From assembly GCF_058153355.1 (NCBI RefSeq), contig NZ_CM177019.1: DNA of 64,000 nt, one strand, 5' to 3'. Each line of letters opens with the position of its first letter. The stretch's first letter is position 1. Position numbers and translations under genes: made by a program. Shown here piece after piece: positions 4,175-54,007 of the stretch. The notes beneath the pieces are model-generated. The model did no database searches and was not told the DNA's origin. It saw only the letters and a program-made list of their open reading frames with translations.

Positions 4175-4307
4175 TTGATGTTTGTCGGTGAACACTCTCC
4201 CGAGTAGGACAAATCCGCCGGGAGCGGATTTGAACGTTGCGAAGCAACGGCCCGGAGGGTGGCGGGCAGGACGCCCGCCATAAACTGCCAGACATCAAAT
4301 CAAGCGA

Positions 4308-4335
4308 AAGGCCATCCGAAAGGATGGCCTTTTTG
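4308..4335 (+). terminator. rrn operon terminator T2-like hairpin
   Basis: aaaggccatccgaaaggatggccttttt; perfect 8 bp stem, GAAA loop, T-run; preceded by a duplicated 5S 3' fragment (ctgccagacatcaaat at 4285-4300). Confidence 0.85.
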
Positions 4336-12529: not shown

Positions 12530-13687
12530 TTACTTCGATGCAGTATCTGCGGGGGTATCGGTAGTGGCTTTAACCTGCTCTCCCGGACGCGCTTTTTGCA
12601 GGCCGCTGACAATGACTTGATCGCCAGATTTCAGCCCTTCGCTAATCAACCATTTATCGCCAATCGCCTGGCTGGCAACGACAGGGCGCGCTTCAACCTG
12701 ACTTTTATCGTTAACAATCAGCACGGTTGCATCACCACGCGGTGTGCGGCTAACGCCTTGTTGCGGGATAAGAATGGCATCAGGTTGGACGCCTTCATCA
12801 ATCCGTGCGCGCACAAACATACCAGGTAAAAGCGTATGTTGCGGGTTAGGGAAGACGGCACGTAGGGTTATGGAGCCGGTGCTTTCATCAACGGTAACAT
12901 CGGAGAATTGCAGCGTACCTTTCAGGGGATAGGTTTGACCGTTCTCCATGACCAACTCTACGTTGCTGGTGGCGTTCTCCTTATGCAAATTTCCTTGCTC
13001 TACGGATTGCTTCAGCCTCATAAAATCGTTGCTGGATTGGGTCACATCAACGTAGATAGGATCGAGCTGCTGGACAGTCGCCAGTTCAGTCGTTTGCCCA
13101 TTAGTGACAAGAGCGCCTTCGGTCACAGTAGATTTGCCGATACGTCCGCTAATTGGCGCAGTCACTTTGGTATAAGCGAGATTGATGCGAGCGCTTTCGA
13201 CCGTGGCTTTTGCGGCAATCACGGCGGCATCGGCCTGGCGAGCATCAGCAATGGCCTGGTCGTACTCCTGCTGACTGATGTATTTCGTACCCACGAGCGG
13301 AACGTAACGTTTTACCGTCAAATGCGCGATGGCGGCGGCGGCTTCACTTTTCGCCAGTTCGCCTTTCGCGCTGTCATAACTTGCCTGATAGGTCGCGGGA
13401 TCGATCTGGTACAGAGACTGGCCTGCTTGCACATCGCTGCCTTCAGTGAAATCGCGACTCAGTACGATCCCGCTAACCTGTGGGCGAACTTCGGCTATAC
13501 GGTAAGCATTGGTGCGGCCTGGTAATTCAGTCTTAACTTCTAACGGGGCCGTTTTCACAATATGAACGGTAACCTGCGGTTCACCGACGTGAGCTTTCTC
13601 TTCTCCCTTATCGTTACAACCGGCGATTAAAGCCGCGGAGATCAGAATAAAGGAGGGCAGGAGGAAAAACCTGGCATGTTTCGTCAT
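12530..13687 (-). CDS. acrE: RND efflux periplasmic adaptor (membrane fusion protein) AcrE
   Basis: 385 aa, lipoprotein signal (LIAGC), coiled-coil adaptor region; immediately upstream of acrF. Confidence 0.93.
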
Positions 13688-20268: not shown

Positions 20269-21225
20269 TCAGTGCTGCTGCAAAAAGTCTTCAATGTCAG
20301 TCAGTGAGGATATCCCTTCCATCGGACCTTGCCGCATTACCGCGAGCGCGCCGCTGGCATTTGCATATTGCAGCGCCTTGTGTGCCGGGATACCGGATAA
20401 GAAAAGAGTGACAAACGTTGCGCCAAAGCAGTCGCCTGCACCCGTTGGATCGATTATTTCGATATCGTGGCCTGCAACATGCTTGGCGTGTAATGTTCCG
20501 TTTTTAATCTTGTAATAGCTGGCCCCACGCTGGGCGCGTTTTATCGCCACATGTTTTACGCCGCCGTGGAGAAGATCGCTAACAATCTGTTCTTCTGACA
20601 GATTTTTGTGACGCGCGAAGAAAGGGAGTTCGCTTTCGCTGGGGATAAAAATATCCGTATATTCAATCAAATAATCGAGAGCCTGCGCCATTTCAGGAAT
20701 ACTCAGCATCTCTTTGCGAATATTGGGATCGAAAGAAACGGTGCCGCCAGCCGATTTGATCGTCGTTATTGCTTTACGCATGACATCGATCATGCGAAAT
20801 GAGAACAATGATGAGCCCACAATATGCAGATGGTTACACTGTTTTAGCAGATCCTTATCAATGTGCTCGGCAGTAAACAAACCGCAGGCGCTGTTAGGGA
20901 TATTAAAGACGAAATCCCGCTGCTGGGGATTTTGATAACTCACGAATGCCGTACCTGTTACGGCATTGTTCATAACATGGATCCCATCGGTAATGACACC
21001 TTCATGACGGAGGCGCTCTATAATGAGTCGGCCAAAATCATCATTACCAACACATCCGAAGAAGATGGCCCGATGGGACAGTTTTGCCACCTGAGCAGCA
21101 AAAATTGCTGGTGCACCGCTGGGAAATGGCCCGATAAACTCCCCAGGCTGAGTGAATTTTTGATGTGGGTTGCGGGACAAAAACTCGGCCAGCAATTCGC
21201 CCATAGCGCAGATAGTTATTGTCAC
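20269..21225 (-). CDS. PfkB-family sugar kinase (island kinase 1)
   Basis: C-terminal DPTGAGDCFGATF and N-terminal GxxxGGAP-like PSGAPAIF motifs; paralogous to ORF 26760-27722; start set at GTG 21225 (GAGG 6 nt upstream; aligns with N-terminus of paralog) instead of ORF-track 21279. Confidence 0.8.
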   Translation of the reverse strand: MTITICAMGELLAEFLSRNPHQKFTQPGEFIGPFPSGAPAIFAAQVAKLSHRAIFFGCVGNDDFGRLIIERLRHEGVITDGIHVMNNAVTGTAFVSYQNPQQRDFVFNIPNSACGLFTAEHIDKDLLKQCNHLHIVGSSLFSFRMIDVMRKAITTIKSAGGTVSFDPNIRKEMLSIPEMAQALDYLIEYTDIFIPSESELPFFARHKNLSEEQIVSDLLHGGVKHVAIKRAQRGASYYKIKNGTLHAKHVAGHDIEIIDPTGAGDCFGATFVTLFLSGIPAHKALQYANASGALAVMRQGPMEGISSLTDIEDFLQQH

Positions 21226-21235
21226 AAAACCCCTC

Positions 21236-22066
21236 TCATTCCTGAAGCCTTTCGCGATTGGACCAGGTAAAGCACTCATTACTGGTATAAAGGATAACGA
21301 AATCAGCCGACTGCAATTGTTGCTGATATTGTTCGTTAATGCTGCGGCTGACGATCACATTTTCTGCCTGATGCAAATGCCCGATAGCAGCCGTTGATGG
21401 CGCAGGATCGGCGGCAACGATAACTGTCTTATTCTGGGCATGATCGAAACAGAGCTGCCAGGCAGCGGCAAGTCTGGGAACGTTGATATTTAAAGTACCA
21501 TCAGCATCCAGATGGCTGATTTCCAGAATGCTGTGTGTAATGGTGAAATGCTGAAGTGCCTGTTCGAGCGGTTTTCCGGCCAGTGCGGTGTCGGGGCGCA
21601 GCATTTCACTGCCAGCCAGTATTATTTCGCCATCAATAAACTGATTTGCCAGCAGCGCATGTTCGGGATCGTTGGTGATCAGACGCAGTTTTTTCACTTC
21701 GCTGAGCAATGGAATGATCTTACGGCAGATTGTCCCATGTCCAAGAAATAGCGTGTCACGATCCCGAATTAACCGTGCGCAATGTCGTGCTATTTCCATT
21801 TGTTGTGCCAGAGACAATGGCGCGATCGGTTGTATCGCTTCTGGTTCAGAGGAGAGTGGTGTCGCAATAGCACCGCCAAATGATCGCTTTAAATATCCCT
21901 GTTGCTCCAGATAACTGAGATCGCCGCGGATCGTCACGCCAGAGACACCAAGTTGCGCAGATAAGTCATCAACTTTGATTTCACCCTGGGCGGCAACAAT
22001 TTCTGCAATTTTTAATCTGCGTTTCAGTAGGTTAGACGATTTTCTCGGCACGTTAACACTCTTCAT
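21236..22066 (-). CDS. DeoR-family transcriptional regulator
   Basis: 276 aa; N-terminal HTH RRLKIAEIVAAQGEIKVDDLSAQLGVSGVTIRGDLSYLEQQGYLKR typical of DeoR/GlpR/AgaR, C-terminal sugar-phosphate sensor domain; stop is 10 nt before kinase 1 start. Confidence 0.85.
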   Translation of the reverse strand: MKSVNVPRKSSNLLKRRLKIAEIVAAQGEIKVDDLSAQLGVSGVTIRGDLSYLEQQGYLKRSFGGAIATPLSSEPEAIQPIAPLSLAQQMEIARHCARLIRDRDTLFLGHGTICRKIIPLLSEVKKLRLITNDPEHALLANQFIDGEIILAGSEMLRPDTALAGKPLEQALQHFTITHSILEISHLDADGTLNINVPRLAAAWQLCFDHAQNKTVIVAADPAPSTAAIGHLHQAENVIVSRSINEQYQQQLQSADFVILYTSNECFTWSNRERLQE

Positions 22067-22379: not shown

Positions 22380-23261
<882 letters not shown>

Positions 23262-23296: not shown

Positions 23297-24187
23297 ATGA
23301 AAAATATTAAATTACTTGGTTCCGCTATGATGGTGAGCCTGGCATTGTTCTCGCAAAGTTCATTGGCAAAAGAGTATAAAATTGGAGCTTCATTATTAAC
23401 ACAGCAACACCCTTTTTATATCGACCTCGCAAATGCAATGAAAGAAGAGGCGAAAAAAGACAATGTCAATTTAAGTGTCTCTATTGCCAATCAGGATTTA
23501 AACAAACAGCTTTCTGATGTTGAGGATTTTATTACTAAAAAGGTAGATGCCATTATTATCTCTCCGGTCGATTCGAAAGGTGTCCAGGCAGCGATAATTA
23601 AAGCCGATAAGGCTGGTATTCCCGTTATCACCGTTGACGTTGCCGCGGAAGGCGTTCCGGTCGTATCGCATGTTGCGACCGATAATTACGCGGGAGGCGT
23701 TGAAGCTGGTAAGTTAATGGGCAAACTTTTGAATGGTAAAGGTACTGTAGCCATTATTTCTTATCCTGCACTACAATCGGTGGTTGCACGCGTTGATGGC
23801 TTTAAGAAAGGATTAAGCGATACGCCGGATATTAAAATTGTTGCGGAACAGCCTGGTATTACGCGCGCTGAAGCGTTAACGACTACGCAAAATATTATGC
23901 AGGCCAACGCCAACCTGAATGGTCTGTTTGGCTTTGGTGATGATGCGGCGCTGGCGGCGGTTATAGCGGCGAAATCTGCGCATAACGACAACATCAAAAT
24001 CATTGGTTTTGATGGTATGAAAGAAGCGCGAGATGCCGTTGATAGTGAAAAAACGTTTGCGGCCGTGATTCGGCAATATCCCGATCAAATGGGTGCTAAA
24101 GCCATAGATGCCGCTGTTGATCACCTCAATGGTAAACCGGTAGAGAAAATGATCCCGGTACAACCCGGCGTTTATACAGGTAAATAA
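23297..24187 (+). CDS. Periplasmic sugar-binding protein (RbsB-like)
   Basis: 296 aa from ATG 23297 (GAGGA 6 nt upstream); signal peptide MKNIKLLGSAMMVSLALFSQSSLA; PBP type I fold similar to ribose-binding protein. Confidence 0.82.
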   Translation: MKNIKLLGSAMMVSLALFSQSSLAKEYKIGASLLTQQHPFYIDLANAMKEEAKKDNVNLSVSIANQDLNKQLSDVEDFITKKVDAIIISPVDSKGVQAAIIKADKAGIPVITVDVAAEGVPVVSHVATDNYAGGVEAGKLMGKLLNGKGTVAIISYPALQSVVARVDGFKKGLSDTPDIKIVAEQPGITRAEALTTTQNIMQANANLNGLFGFGDDAALAAVIAAKSAHNDNIKIIGFDGMKEARDAVDSEKTFAAVIRQYPDQMGAKAIDAAVDHLNGKPVEKMIPVQPGVYTGK

Positions 24188-24247: not shown

Positions 24248-25669
24248 ATGACGGATGTTATTCTTGATGTTTCGCATATTGCGAAGACATTTGGTCATGT
24301 TCAGGCATTAAAAGATATTACACTCTCTTTACGTAAAGGGCGGGTACATACTTTATTAGGTGAGAATGGTGCCGGTAAATCGACATTAATGAAAATATTG
24401 GCCGGTGTTTATCCGCCAACCCAGGGAACAATAAAACTACGTGGTGAAACTATCACAATTAATAATCCGCAGCATTCACGTCAGTTAGGGATTGCTATTA
24501 TTTTTCAGGAACTGAGCCTGAGTAATAATATGACCGTGGCGGAAAATATTTATGCCAATAATGAACCGCGACGTTTTGGCATTATTAACGATAAAAAAAT
24601 GCTCGCAGATTGCCAGAATCTCCTCGCGGAACTGGGCATCCCACTGGATCCGCTGGAAATGGTCGGCAATATGTCGATGGCACATAGGCAACTGGTAGAA
24701 ATTGCCAAAGCCTTAAGCTATGCAGCAGATGTCGTGATTATGGATGAACCGACATCTTCGCTAAGTGATAATGAAGCAGAGATTCTGTTTAACATTATTG
24801 AGAAATTAAAGCAGCGAGGTTGTGCGGTTATTTATATCTCTCATCGCATGGATGAAATTATGCGGATTTCAGATGATATTTCGGTGATCCGCGACGGTGA
24901 GTATATCGCTACGCATGAAAAGAAAAACAGTGATATCCAGCATTTGATTGCCCAAATGGTTGGTCGGGAAATGAAAAATATTTGGCCAGCACGTCTTGGG
25001 GAAAAGCCGGATGAAAATATTCCTGCAAAACTGGAAGTAAAAAACCTTTCCCATCCTTCGCTTTTTAAAGAGGTCAGTTTCGCTGTGCGTCCGGGGGAAG
25101 TCCTCGGATTTTTTGGCCTGGTGGGGGCCGGGCGTTCCGATGTGATGAAGGCGCTATTTGGCCTCATTTCGTATCACGGGACTGTGTTGATTGATGGTAA
25201 GGAAGTCAGGATCGCTAATCCCAAACAGGCCATTGATCATGGCATTGCATTTGTGACCGAAAACCGCAAGGAAGAAGGGTTAGTGCTGATGCACGACGTC
25301 AATATGAACACGCACCACGTGGCGTTTCAATATAACGCTTCGCGGATGGGACTCATCAATCACCGACAAGAAGAGACGAAGACGCTGCAATCTATTGCCA
25401 GAATGAATACTAAAGTGAGTTCTGTACATCAGGCTGTGGGGGCGCTAAGCGGCGGTAATCAACAGAAAATCGTGTTATCGAAGTGGCTGGAGAAAACCCC
25501 ACGTATTTTATTGCTCGATGAGCCTACGCGCGGAGTGGATGTCGGCGCAAAATTTGAAATCTATAACGTGATACGTCAACTGGCTGCGGCAGGAACAGCA
25601 ATTATTCTGGTGTCCTCTGAACTGCCTGAAGTCATGGCACTTAGCGATCGTCTGGTGGTTAATGCGTAA
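24248..25669 (+). CDS. Sugar ABC transporter ATP-binding protein, two-domain RbsA-like; apparent frameshift truncates C-terminus (remaining 28 codons continue in the next frame to 25748)
   Basis: Two nucleotide-binding domains (Walker A GENGAGKST and GLVGAGRSD, signature LSGGNQQK, Walker B LLLDEPTRGVD); ORF stops after ...LSDRLVVNA, while the next frame reads MRNKTIADIYSCENLTQTQVMTAATGVR and ends directly before the permease ATG. Confidence 0.8.
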   Translation: MTDVILDVSHIAKTFGHVQALKDITLSLRKGRVHTLLGENGAGKSTLMKILAGVYPPTQGTIKLRGETITINNPQHSRQLGIAIIFQELSLSNNMTVAENIYANNEPRRFGIINDKKMLADCQNLLAELGIPLDPLEMVGNMSMAHRQLVEIAKALSYAADVVIMDEPTSSLSDNEAEILFNIIEKLKQRGCAVIYISHRMDEIMRISDDISVIRDGEYIATHEKKNSDIQHLIAQMVGREMKNIWPARLGEKPDENIPAKLEVKNLSHPSLFKEVSFAVRPGEVLGFFGLVGAGRSDVMKALFGLISYHGTVLIDGKEVRIANPKQAIDHGIAFVTENRKEEGLVLMHDVNMNTHHVAFQYNASRMGLINHRQEETKTLQSIARMNTKVSSVHQAVGALSGGNQQKIVLSKWLEKTPRILLLDEPTRGVDVGAKFEIYNVIRQLAAAGTAIILVSSELPEVMALSDRLVVNA

Positions 25670-25748
25670 TAAAACGATTGCCGATATTTATTCATGTGAA
25701 AATTTAACGCAGACACAGGTAATGACCGCTGCAACAGGAGTACGTTAA

Positions 25749-26738
25749 ATGACAGAGAAAACTCTTGCCAGTCCGAAACCTTCGGAAATTCCCATTGCAA
25801 ATAATTTTAAAAAAGTCTTCAGGCAATATGGCGGTATCCTCAGTGGAATGGTGGTGTTAATCATTCTGTTCAGTTTTATTAATGACAGTTTTTTTACTGC
25901 CAATAACATTACTAATATTATTCTTCAGGTTTCGATAATTGCAATTACCGCCTATGGAATGACTTATGTACTTTTGCTTGGCGATATTGATTTATCGGTC
26001 GGTTCAACCATTGCATTGATTGGCACATTTGCTGCGCTTGGGGCTTCATGGGGAATTCCATTTATTTTATTGGTCCCATTATCCATTATTGTAGCCCTGG
26101 CTCTGGGGATGATAAATGGTGGCTTGACGGCTATAGCGGGTATCCCTTCGTTTATTGTCACCGTTGCTACAATGGGGATCTTCCGTGGTATCGCTTATAT
26201 AGTGACCGATGGTATGCCCATCATGATTAAAGATGATGCCTTTCTGGCGCTGGGGAATGGAGAATTTCTCTATATACCGATTCCTATCTGGATATTAATC
26301 ATCTTATTGCTGATTAACCACTTCATTCTTACTAAAACAACCTTTGGACGAAAAATTTATATCACTGGTGGTAATAAAGAAGCGGCAGTCTATTCAGGGA
26401 TAAATGTCACCCGCTTGAAAATTAAAGTCTTTATGATTACAGCCGTGCTGGCAGGTATCAGCGGGATGATCCTCGCCTCACGCCTCTATTCCGGGCAACC
26501 GAATTCCGCGTTGAGCTACGAACTGGATGCTATTGCCGCGGCTGTACTGGGAGGCACCAGCCTGAACGGCGGCTATGGAACCGTGGTGGGGACGGTGATC
26601 GGCGCATTAACCATCGGCGTTATTAATAATGGCATGAACTTAATGAATGTTCCCTATTTTTACCAGATGGTGGTTAAAGGATTAGTCATTCTTGTAGCCG
26701 TTTATTTTGACGTAAGAAATAAAAGAAAACGCAGCTAA
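25749..26738 (+). CDS. Sugar ABC transporter permease (RbsC-like)
   Basis: 329 aa, about 10 TM segments, start codon abuts the frame-restored stop of the ATPase. Confidence 0.82.
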   Translation: MTEKTLASPKPSEIPIANNFKKVFRQYGGILSGMVVLIILFSFINDSFFTANNITNIILQVSIIAITAYGMTYVLLLGDIDLSVGSTIALIGTFAALGASWGIPFILLVPLSIIVALALGMINGGLTAIAGIPSFIVTVATMGIFRGIAYIVTDGMPIMIKDDAFLALGNGEFLYIPIPIWILIILLLINHFILTKTTFGRKIYITGGNKEAAVYSGINVTRLKIKVFMITAVLAGISGMILASRLYSGQPNSALSYELDAIAAAVLGGTSLNGGYGTVVGTVIGALTIGVINNGMNLMNVPYFYQMVVKGLVILVAVYFDVRNKRKRS

Positions 26739-26759: not shown

Positions 26760-27722
26760 ATGAGTAAGGTCTTCACAATTGGAGAAATTCTTGTTGAAAT
26801 TATGGCGAGTAAAATCGGCCAGCCATTTGATCAACCAGGTATCTGGAACGGCCCTTATCCCAGTGGTGCGCCCGCTATTTTTATCGACCAGGTGACACGT
26901 CTTGGCGTTCCGTGCGGCATCATTAGCTGTGTGGGGAATGATGGCTTTGGTGATATTAATATACATCGTTTGGCTGCTGATGGTGTGGATATCAGGGGGA
27001 TTTCAGTCTTACCTCTGGAAGCCACCGGTAGCGCCTTTGTTACTTATCATAACTCTGGCGATCGTGATTTTATTTTTAATATCAAGAATGCCGCTTGCGG
27101 TAAATTATCGGCGCAGCATGTTGATGAAAATATTCTGAAGGACTGTACCCATTTTCATATTATGGGTTCATCCCTGTTTTCATTCCATATGGTAGACGCA
27201 GTAAAGAAAGCGGTAACCATTGTAAAGGAGAATGGTGGCGTTATTTCTTTCGACCCTAATATTCGGAAAGAGATGCTCGATATTCCAGAAATGCGTGACG
27301 CCCTCCACTTTGTTCTTGAGTTAACAGATATCTATATGCCCAGCGAGGGAGAAGTGTTGCTCTTGTCGCCACACTCGACACCGGAGCGTGCAATCGCTGG
27401 TTTTCTTGAAGAAGGTGTTAAAGAGGTGATTGTGAAGCGCGGCAATCAAGGTGCCAGTTACTACTCCGCGAATGAGCAGTTTCATGTTGAGAGCTATCCG
27501 GTGGATGAAGTTGACCCGACCGGTGCGGGAGACTGCTTTGGTGGCGCGTGGATTGCCTGCCGCCAGCTAGGGTTTGACGCCCATCGGGCATTACAATATG
27601 CCAACGCCTGCGGTGCACTGGCGGTAACCCGACGTGGCCCAATGGAGGGAACGTCTCGCCTTGCGGAAATCGAAGCGTTCATCCAGCGCCATGACATGTC
27701 CATTCGGGAAGCAGCACAATGA
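26760..27722 (+). CDS. PfkB-family sugar kinase (island kinase 2)
   Basis: 320 aa; DPTGAGDCFGGAW anion-hole motif, PSGAPAIF N-terminal motif; paralog of kinase 1. Confidence 0.82.
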   Translation: MSKVFTIGEILVEIMASKIGQPFDQPGIWNGPYPSGAPAIFIDQVTRLGVPCGIISCVGNDGFGDINIHRLAADGVDIRGISVLPLEATGSAFVTYHNSGDRDFIFNIKNAACGKLSAQHVDENILKDCTHFHIMGSSLFSFHMVDAVKKAVTIVKENGGVISFDPNIRKEMLDIPEMRDALHFVLELTDIYMPSEGEVLLLSPHSTPERAIAGFLEEGVKEVIVKRGNQGASYYSANEQFHVESYPVDEVDPTGAGDCFGGAWIACRQLGFDAHRALQYANACGALAVTRRGPMEGTSRLAEIEAFIQRHDMSIREAAQ

Positions 27723-28765
27723 AAAACGAAATTTGGTCGTGGATTGGCGATCTCTCGCAGGTTGCCGGAATTAAACACTATGAGTTACGTAGTGGCAGAT
27801 CAAAGGGGACAGAAGCGTTTGATGTCCGTACTGGTGCGGGATTGGCATTTACGGTGGTAAAAGATCGCGCGCTGGATATTGCATGGGCCAGCTACAAGGA
27901 CACTGCGCTCTCTTTTATCACCCCCAACGGCATTGTCGCGCCTGCTTTTTTTGAGCCGCAGGGCAATGGATTTTTGCGTAGCTTCTACGCGGGATTACTG
28001 ACCACATGCGGACTTAGCTACATTGGGACGCCCTGTGAGGATGAAGGAGAAACGCTGGGATTACCCGGACGTTTGGCTGCGACACCAGCGGAAGAGGTGG
28101 GATATCGCACAGAACGGACCGACGACGGCATTGAATTTGTCATCAATGGCAAATTACGGGAAACGCGATTGTTCGGTGAAAATCTGACGTTGGAAAGGAC
28201 CATTCGCTGCCGCTATGGCGAAAATGTGCTGCGCATTGAAGACAAGGTGACTAATCATGGTTTCACCCGCCAGCCGCTGCAAATTCTTTATCACTTTAAT
28301 TACGGCTGGCCTTTATTATCGCCACAGGCAGAAATCTTGCTGTCGGCTAAAAGCGTAACGCCACGAACCCCGCATGCGGCGGAAGGGTTAACCAGTCATC
28401 TGGAGATTTGTACCCCACAGCCCGGTTTTGACGAGCAGGTTTACTATCTCACGTTGAATAGCGACAGTCAGGGGATGAGTAAAGTTGCGCTGGTGAACGC
28501 CGAACTGGGGTGGGGAATTTACGAGAAATTCGACACCATGCAGCTACCCAACTTTATCCAGTGGAAAAATTTAGGCGCGGGTGAATATGTTATGGGGCTG
28601 GAGGTCAGCAATAGTTTTCCTGACGGTCGTGATAAAGAACGAGCGCAGGGGCGTCTGCCCTTTATAGAGCCAAGGGAAACAAAGACATACTGCTTTGAGC
28701 TGGGAATTGTTGATGGCGATGCTGAAATTAGCGCGTTGAAAGCGGAAATTGCAGGCTACCGTTAG
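27719..28765 (+). CDS. Uncharacterised protein, possibly aldose-1-epimerase/mutarotase-like (DUF-type)
   Basis: 348 aa, no recognisable catalytic motif by eye; start overlaps kinase 2 stop by 4 nt (ATGA), so translationally coupled; family assignment is a guess. Confidence 0.5.
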   Translation: MKNEIWSWIGDLSQVAGIKHYELRSGRSKGTEAFDVRTGAGLAFTVVKDRALDIAWASYKDTALSFITPNGIVAPAFFEPQGNGFLRSFYAGLLTTCGLSYIGTPCEDEGETLGLPGRLAATPAEEVGYRTERTDDGIEFVINGKLRETRLFGENLTLERTIRCRYGENVLRIEDKVTNHGFTRQPLQILYHFNYGWPLLSPQAEILLSAKSVTPRTPHAAEGLTSHLEICTPQPGFDEQVYYLTLNSDSQGMSKVALVNAELGWGIYEKFDTMQLPNFIQWKNLGAGEYVMGLEVSNSFPDGRDKERAQGRLPFIEPRETKTYCFELGIVDGDAEISALKAEIAGYR

Positions 28766-30687: not shown

Positions 30688-31696
30688 GAGTGGGTTCCGT
30701 ACTCTTTGTTTAGTGTGATTGTGACAGGCGTTTCACCGCCGTCTGTAAAGCGTATGCCCCGACAGCTGTATGCATAGCGATAAATTCCAGCAGGCCGGGA
30801 CGCCGGTCTATTTTGCCCCAGAGTGTCAATGTTTAGACTTGACGGACATTGTGCAGCGATCTGCTGCTATCCTCCGGCAAAAAACAAAATATACCTTCGT
30901 TGCGCCAATGTCACCTTTTCCGCAGCGCAAAAACTGCGTCAGGGAGGACGAGGTCGCACATTATAACGATTTCGTAGCAATTGGCAGCTAAATACTGGTC
31001 TTATCAGGGAAGATAATCAACAGCTAACATGTAAATAACCTTCAACACCGTGTAATTTGCAACAAGCCGCACAATTCACGAAATTAGCGCTATCGTCGAC
31101 GGAACTTCTTATAACGTAAGGCTAAAAGCTGTAAAGCTAGCTCTGCGAAGATGAGGGGCTGCAATGAGATGATCCTCACAGACCACAAATAATGTAGGGA
31201 TGTCAGGATCGCGGCAAGATAGACGACATTACGCAGCGGTTGCTGGTGATTACTCAATTTTCACGGCATCGTCCGGATAGACGTCTATGCTAAAGCACGC
31301 AAAATCAACAAACTGACAATGCTCAGCATCAAATAGTTTTGAGTGGTTAATTTATAATCAAATAAAATCAGATTATTCACCCCTGGGATCAGAGTTAAGA
31401 TACAGATTAAGCGTAGCGTCACCCAGGCAAAGCGCCTTAAACCTAACAGACGACGGGACGTATCAATAATGACTATTTAGTGGAGTATCAAGGGTGTTTT
31501 CCACCGTTTGGTGACCCGTATCAATGCGCATCAATTTATGGTCAGTCGAAATCATGACTTTCCAGTTTGGATGATGTTGTACAACTTCATGACCAAGATG
31601 TTCGACGAAAGCTGTCCGGCTAACCGCTTTTCCCGTTAACCGATTGAATAATGATTTCAAAATGAGTTCCCTCTCTTATTATTCCCTGATAAATGG

Positions 31697-52581: not shown

Positions 52582-54007
52582 TAATGCCAGTCAGTTAAGC
52601 AACTGACTGGCTCTTTTTCGGGGCTGTGGGGTATTTCCAGGGCCTCTCCTTTACCACTCTCGGGAAGGCCCTTTCCCTTCTTGTCGGTAATTTCACAAGT
52701 TGTCCCATACTTGCAAGATCGCGCATCAGCTCCGGTATACGTCCCGGTGAAGCGCCCTGCAATGTCATCAGCATTCTCATCACCATTCCGCATGATTCTG
52801 AGAAACTCAGTTGATTCGGCCAGTAACCTTTCAGATGTTCCGCCATTTTAATCATCTGATATCTCACCAGATTATAAGCCAGTAAGACACCCCACAGCTC
52901 TTGCTCCACAAGCTCCGGCTTTTTACTTCTCAGCGTCAGCCTGCTCAGTTGCATCGTCTGTTTTATCTCCCTGTATCCCAGTTCGATTTCCCAGCGATGA
53001 CTGTACAGATCCGCCATTTCTCCTCCGGGGAAGCGCATGGCGTCCGTCATCGACGTCAGCAGATGGCAGACTTTTCCTTTGCGCGTCACGGTCAGCAGGC
53101 GGGCTGTCACTTCATTTCCCAGTCCCGGCCACTTTTTTCGTGCCTGCGGGCTGGTTTTCAGCTTCACCAGATGATCGCCTTTACCCAGTTTTCTGATCTC
53201 TTCATATTGCGCTCCCTTTCTGAGAGGTATCATCCAGTGGCGGTGTTCTCCCGCCAGGCTCCAGGCATTTAACAGTCCCAGTGAGTAATAACCTTTATCC
53301 ATTAACGTCAGAGTGTTATCGCCGGTTTGTTCTATAAGTTGCTCAGCAAGCTCATTTTCGCTGTTCTTCATCGTGCCGAAGGCTGCAGCCGTCAGCAGAT
53401 GGCTGGTCAGTTCCATCTGGCAGACCATTTTGACCTGCGGGTAGAGCGCCGGGTTCCCGGCATGTGTCTGGCGGGGGAAGGCTGCATCGTTCTCTGGTGT
53501 ATCCGGTGTGCGCCAGAACACACCATCGATGGCCAGCAGGGTCAGGCCGCACCAGTGCGGATGCGGCGTGGCGTTATGCCAGAGCTGCGCTGTTTTCGTG
53601 AACACGCGGCGGACAGCCTCACTTCCCAGGCGCTGGCGGGCCTGAATAACGGCACTGGGGGCAACGAAGGGGCGATTGCCCGGCAGCATGATGTCCAGGC
53701 GATTCACAATCTGGTGAAGAGGTTCTTTACGCTCAAGCGCCATGCCAACAATACACCAGACCATCATTTCGAGGGGAAGACGGCGCTTGCGTAGCGTTAC
53801 AGTACCTGATTCGGCAAGGCAACGAGAGATGAGTTCGGGGTCGAGGTAATCCCCCAGAGAAGTCAGTGGGTTACGCAGAGAATCGTAACGGGATACCAGA
53901 TCAAGAGCCTGTCCAATGTGCATAAAAAAATCCGGAAACAAGTGAGCGTTTCCGGATTCTTACACAGCCACTGGATCGGTCAACTGATCCTTAACTGATC
54001 GGCATTA
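52582..54007 (-). mobile_element. IS4 insertion sequence, complete (1426 bp)
   Basis: Terminal 18 bp inverted repeats taatgccagtcagttaag (left) / reverse complement of cttaactgatcggcatta (right), 16/18 match; single DDE transposase ORF; flanked by 12 bp direct repeats. Confidence 0.9.
52595..53923 (-). CDS. IS4 transposase
   Basis: 442 aa from ATG 53923 ([40 protein letters not shown]...), DDE transposase; length and N-terminus match my recollection of IS4 InsG. Confidence 0.88.

Follow-up and report, generated by a model that had tools for sequence, protein, structure and literature searches.

The locus raises the question of why a gene for a two-domain sugar ABC ATPase stops short of its expected end: does it carry a real mutation, or an error of sequencing or assembly, and what would the break mean for the importer? 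Our analysis of the window (the whole 64,000-nt stretch of DNA considered here) favors with high probability one explanation for all the observations, namely that a real, inherited insertion of one T in a small E. coli clone truncates the ATPase TagB, with predicted loss of importer function.

From sequence comparison, the frameshifted gene is identified as tagB, encoding the fused two-domain ATPase of the E. coli D-tagatose importer. Like the corresponding regions of strains N96, CE10, and Nissle, the window contains, between yhdT and accC, the genes tagK-tagR divergent from tagY-tagA-tagB-tagC-tagD-tagE (gene names tagK, tagR, tagY, tagA, tagB, tagC, tagD, and tagE are from PMC12226905). The tag cluster of E. 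coli Nissle 1917, situated between the same two genes, has been characterized experimentally (Ha et al., iScience 2022, PMC9720028): deletion of the six-gene operon or of the kinase gene (tagD) abolished growth on D-tagatose, and the operon conferred such growth on K-12, B, and W strains. The published deletions are the six-gene and tagD ones only, with no single tagB knockout reported (PMC9720028). Nissle TagB (ECOLIN_RS18685 / HW372_RS02455) shares both gene order and chromosomal site with the window copy (97.0% nucleotide identity over 1553 nt to ECOLIN_RS18685; six amino-acid differences after in-silico repair); it is, however, an intact protein of 499 aa in a strain that grows on D-tagatose, whereas the window copy is truncated at residue 471 by an extra T.

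The other genes of the cluster are all full length. The operon begins with tagY (22407..23261, + strand), encoding a GatY-like tagatose-bisphosphate class II aldolase (NF009374, 523 bits; TIGR01858 above its cut-off), followed by tagA (23297..24187, +) for a periplasmic RbsB-like sugar-binding protein of 296 aa, the length annotated in orthologues. Downstream of tagB are tagC (25749..26738, +), encoding an AraH/RbsC-like permease of 329 aa, tagD (26760..27722, +) for tagatose kinase of the PfkB family, and tagE (27719..28765, +) for a protein of the DUF4432/aldose-1-epimerase family. On the opposite strand, tagR (21236..22066, −) encodes the divergent DeoR-family repressor (PMC12226905), and downstream of it tagK (20269..21204, −) encodes a second PfkB sugar kinase; the end given for tagK is the annotated start of the orthologue (936 nt), the open frame extending upstream to 21279. 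The 413.4 bits scored by E. coli TagD against NF049991 (TagKinase) fall just below the cut-off of 420, and RefSeq labels the protein only "sugar kinase". Since deletion of the tagD orthologue in Nissle makes the strain Tag− (PMC9720028), this cut-off appears to exclude the E. coli tagatose kinase.

TagB consists of two nucleotide-binding domains (NBDs) in one chain of about 500 aa, and aligns over its full length to the profiles of XylG, AraG, RbsA, MglA, and AlsA. With these CUT2 fused ATPases it shares two ABC_tran domains, an asymmetric distribution of motifs between NBD1 and NBD2, and the pairing of its gene with those for an RbsC/AraH-type permease and an RbsB-type binding protein. The motifs are found at positions 38, 142, 164, 197, 290, 400, 421, and 455. 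In NBD1, a canonical Walker A (GENGAGKST, position 38) and the H-loop histidine His199 are combined with a degenerate signature (MSMAHRQ); NBD2, which lacks the H-loop histidine, pairs a canonical signature, LSGGNQQK (position 400), with a degenerate Walker A (GAGRS, Arg296). The initial annotation had compared the protein with two-domain sugar ABC ATPases and its C-terminus with RbsA/AraG-type proteins, and this holds for the fused two-domain architecture but not for an assignment to RbsA or AraG: repaired TagB scores below the NCBIfam cut-offs of all named equivalogs considered (RbsA, AraG, XylG, MglA, AlsA, YtfR, and LsrA), with score/cut-off values of 554/699 for XylG, 550/689 for AraG, and 512/745 for RbsA. 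TagB is therefore a distinct paralogue with another substrate, D-tagatose according to PMC9720028. The best matches of a PDB sequence search were generic ABC domains only, with no solved RbsA-type fused ATPase among them.

The truncated tagB occupies 24248..25669 (+) and encodes 473 aa ending in ...SSELPEVMALSDRLVVNA (...RLVVNA). It retains two ABC_tran domains; residues 1-471 are native and are followed by non-native N and A and a TAA stop at 25667-25669, and the NCBIfam profile matches end at about position 471-477 of 500-513. The remainder of the gene lies out of frame at 25662..25748 (+), starting at the Met472 codon: this 28-aa open reading frame, MRNKTIADIYSCENLTQTQVMTAATGVR, corresponds exactly to residues 472-499 of the orthologous protein and keeps the original TAA, at 25746-25748, adjoining the permease ATG at 25749. 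This layout, including the entry to the second frame at atg 25662, had been noted in the initial annotation and agrees with the list of open reading frames; its reading of the downstream frame as an ABC ATPase C-terminus is borne out by the identity to orthologous residues 472-499.

Alignment with orthologues, a comparison that had been proposed earlier, pinpointed the lesion. The genes in N96, CE10, and Nissle 1917 are intact and have one T fewer, each with a 1500-nt CDS for 499 aa and its TAA directly before the permease ATG, while the span 24248-25748 is 1501 nt in the window. The sole length difference in the alignment is between CTGGTGGTTAATGCG in the window and CTGGTGGTAATGCG or CTGGTGGTGATGCG in orthologues, i.e., CTGGTGG-T-TAATG, with the inserted T being 25659 or 25660 (25659..25660, +; TT against a single T; GGT->GGTT, codon 471/472). 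The proposal of a one-nucleotide insertion at the 3' end of the ATPase gene was thus right, and its placement near 25661 was within two bases, although the base is a T and not the "a" that had been suggested. Of 5,426 complete E. coli genomes searched by megablast with positions 24248-25800 (1553 nt), 1,420 contain the locus, and the full-length matches among those listed all had 1552 nt against the 1553 nt of the query. The 88 nt downstream of the insertion match the CE10 and Nissle orthologues with 100% identity, which makes chance an implausible source of the downstream frame. In-silico removal of one T yields a TagB of 499 aa with two differences from N96 (I258V and I307V), its residues 472-499 being identical to those of the N96, CE10, and Nissle orthologues. 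The one-T insertion shifts the tagB frame, adds N and A, and ends translation at 25667-25669, so that residues 472-499 are lost; a single indel relative to intact orthologues, leading to a premature stop, is the lesion expected of a frameshift pseudogene.

Such a difference could in principle be an artefact, with tagB truly intact and the extra T introduced during consensus calling or polishing. Assemblies err most often by single-base indels; the window, which covers an rRNA operon as well as an IS element, probably comes from a long-read or hybrid assembly; and a 61-nt query over the site, carrying the frameshifted allele, had no exact match in any of the 1420 complete genomes of E. coli that contain the locus. 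The extra T nevertheless recurs in contigs assembled independently from two public read runs, as well as in another assembly at NCBI. The exact 473-aa TagB is present in a contig of the Logan assembly of read run SRR28786219, which differs from the window only by C29126T over 21,422 nt. Further carriers were traced through the exact TagE allele of the window. The NCBI assembly GCA_043012465.1 has the extra T together with C29126T, and no gene is called in its tagB slot; the Logan assembly of SRR8656992 has the extra T and the 473-aa product together with G24536A, which changes TagB by V97M. The lesion is thus reproducible in independent sequence data and common to three genotypes, including that of the window, separated by single SNPs.

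The sequence context also argues against an error. The site is a simple T->TT without a long homopolymer, and in a census of indels against N96 (about 62 kb at roughly 1.2% divergence) the tagB T was the sole frame-changing indel in coding sequence, all others being intergenic or in rRNA spacers. An error-prone assembly was rejected on the basis of this census; a pair of indels at 27224/27230 in tagD, considered as a frameshift, was rejected as a same-length substitution patch. In two assemblies, consecutive NCBI protein accessions skip TagB, and there is no protein record for the gene, which implies that tagB is annotated as a pseudogene in both. We consider an artefact exceedingly improbable. 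Of the two options left by the initial annotation, real mutation or sequencing/assembly indel, the former is favored: because SNP-distinct genotypes from independent read sets share the extra T, the sequence data indicate a real insertion that has been inherited in a single small clone, which is E. coli judging by the names NCBI gives to neighboring exact-match proteins. All three genotypes might descend from one strain in the laboratory, or represent repeated isolation of it, and inheritance within a clone does not mean that the allele is widespread in nature. The exact frameshifted 39-mer was found neither in GTDB representative genomes nor in JGI metagenome contigs; given also the lack of a match in the 1420 E. 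coli genomes, the allele is rare.

A search with repaired TagB against a collection of 5.8 billion proteins returned homologues of 99% to 57% identity, almost all of them 496-528 aa long. Four close relatives, 446-467 aa long, show internal in-frame deletions but retain the ending ...QVMTAATGVR. Among thousands of homologues, no split TagB and none ending at the truncation point was found; close homologs naturally ending in ...RLVVNA, which would have spoken against a frameshift, are therefore missing, as no homologue in the 57% to 99% identity range ends in ...RLVV. In an alignment of 24 sequences reaching down to 57% identity, M472, L486, M492, A495, and G497 of the lost segment are invariant, and K475, T487, and V491 nearly so. 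Repaired TagB aligns with the XylG, AraG, and RbsA models up to their last positions, and scores higher than the truncated form (554.1 vs 534.7, 549.5 vs 534.9, and 511.7 vs 492.0 bits, respectively); this gain of 15-20 bits removes the other ground on which the frameshift had been open to doubt, that the downstream frame might not align to ABC ATPase C-termini. The 28-aa peptide alone had no match in NCBIfam, being too short for the profiles. Separately, the 90%-identity protein cluster that holds TagB (499 aa) also contains many 329-aa TagC permeases, perhaps chained via read-through fusion ORFs at the TAAATG junction, a database quirk affecting cluster sizes.

The AlphaFold model of repaired TagB has a mean pLDDT of 85.5, with values of 84-95 over the last 30 residues. 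Its C-terminus is formed by strands 468-473 and 476-482 and helix 488-496, mirroring strands 210-215 and 218-224 and helix 230-238 of NBD1. According to the model, the truncation removes the end of strand 468-473, all of strand 476-482, and the C-terminal helix of NBD2. ABC dimers are arranged head-to-tail, an ATP site being built from the Walker A of one NBD and the signature of the other. In TagB, the single consensus ATP site would combine the NBD1 Walker A (GAGKST) and His199 with the LSGGN signature of NBD2; as NBD2 supplies the canonical signature in this arrangement, the only consensus site would require a folded NBD2. Partial loss of the NBD2 core sheet would cause misfolding or destabilization, abolishing ATP-driven tagatose uptake and rendering the strain Tag−. 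Judging from conservation and the structural model, tagatose import is likely lost through misfolding or instability of NBD2.

One could argue that truncated TagB remains partly or fully active, alone or together with a separately translated 28-aa remnant that reassembles with it non-covalently as a split ATPase. Only 28 of the 499 residues are removed, and all nucleotide-binding motifs, including Walker, signature, and D-loop motifs, are retained; the two ORFs jointly encode every native residue, and tagC, tagD, tagE, and the remaining cluster are intact. Moreover, the native Met472 codon supplies an ATG at 25662 that overlaps the stop region (TAATGCGTAA), lies 5 nt before the new stop, and is preceded by GGTGG at a distance of 3 nt; an ATG-stop overlap of this sort can permit termination-reinitiation. 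A spacing of 3 nt is, however, poor for a Shine-Dalgarno-like element, the lost strands are conserved and belong to the core sheet of NBD2, and the homologue search described above yielded no split or similarly ending protein; the V97M change in one member of the clone hints at relaxed constraint, as an anecdotal point. We regard retained function as improbable overall. Residual activity of the truncated protein, for which the already degenerate ATP site of NBD2 itself and the small number of lost residues could be invoked, is unlikely. As for the natural split ATPase, in which reinitiation at ATG 25662 after the TAA at 25667-25669 would provide a strand-plus-helix peptide of 28 aa complementing the 473-aa fragment, we deem it very improbable; were it true, the clone would retain attenuated tagatose import.

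Under the preferred reading, a truncated and nonfunctional TagB, the downstream genes need not be silenced. The native TAAATG stop-start junction between tagB and tagC is lost, but tagC keeps an AGGAG Shine-Dalgarno sequence at 25736-25740 (8 nt upstream of its ATG), no more than 79 nt are left untranslated, and a search of this gap for a + strand terminator as a cause of polarity on tagC found none. Strong polarity is hence not expected, and these sequence features suggest that expression of tagC, tagD, and tagE probably persists.

Programmed +1 ribosomal frameshifting, or some other recoding, could restore full-length TagB as a regulatory device: the two frames overlap from 25572 to 25669, and GGTGG lies just upstream. 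Known cases of the prfB or IS-transposase type combine conservation among orthologues with a slippery site, and tagB has neither. No slippery codon able to re-pair occurs at GTT-A, AAT-G, or GCG-T (CTG GTG GTT AAT GCG TAA), and the frameshift is clone-specific, absent from the 1420 E. coli genomes, from GTDB representatives, and from metagenomes, whereas programmed frameshifts stay conserved among orthologues. The probability of recoding is negligible. Transcriptional slippage was also considered and rejected, there being no homopolymer at the site and no conservation.

The age of the mutation can be gauged from repaired tagB, in which synonymous and nonsynonymous substitutions number 40:6 relative to Nissle, 29:6 relative to CE10, 4:2 relative to N96, and 15:1 relative to one further orthologue. 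No substitutions were found downstream of codon 471 in comparison with these orthologues. This pattern indicates a recent insertion in a gene that was under purifying selection until recently. In the clone member represented by SRR8656992, the G->A change at window position 24536 places V97M near the Q-loop region; it may fit relaxed constraint on a pseudogene, although it is a single, anecdotal event.

The window thus has a frameshift pseudogene of an ordinary kind, restricted to one clone and derived from a known gene of a known accessory sugar cluster; it involves no new mechanism. It resembles other strain-specific frameshift pseudogenes of E. coli accessory catabolic operons, with a single lesion in one lineage and the cluster otherwise intact. 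Pseudogenes have been reported in the tag cluster for the tagE homologue in H305 and the tagK homologues in S88 and H252 (PMC9720028); these are likewise strain-specific, while in the window the gene affected is tagB, encoding the ATPase. In E. coli NR1430 (NZ_AP040186.1, 2149189-2153975), tagB was observed to be disrupted independently: IS1 interrupts it at about nt 786 and is followed by chromosomally integrated F-plasmid transfer genes traL, traA, traY, and traM. A cluster of 301-aa "partial" TagB proteins with 175 members may relate to the NR1430 disruption. Together with NR1430, the window provides a small data point on the sporadic decay of an accessory sugar-utilization island. The clone is predicted to be unable to use D-tagatose despite carrying the whole tag cluster. 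Tagatose use across phylogroups has been inferred from whether the cluster is present (PMC9720028), and such inference would overcall the phenotype of this clone, as the whole cluster is present with tagB frameshifted. The frameshift could also act as a clone-specific marker; no open question is affected by it.

Several other features of the window were observed in passing. An IS4-type element of 1426 bp (52582-54007) is situated between mdh and degS, with a transposase ORF at 52595..53941 (−), ends TAATGCC...GGCATTA, and a 12-bp target duplication GAGCACAGACTC; it is missing from N96, the closest complete genome. Short-read contigs of the clone break at the site of this element, which suggests the same IS4 insertion and several IS4 copies in the genome of that clone. 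Between yhdZ and the second 5S gene, immediately after the rRNA operon, the window has a 12-nt insertion relative to N96 (4305-4316, CGAAAGGCCATC) within the hairpin-like GGCCATCCGAAAGGATGGC, which is probably variation in a terminator stem. Finally, N96 has between accB and acuI a 65-aa hypothetical gene and, next to it, an annotated "cytochrome b family protein" pseudogene fragment interrupted by an internal stop; the same remnant appears to be present in the window at about 31090-31460 (corresponding to 12842-13210 of the N96 locus sequence compared), where no gene is called in two related contigs.
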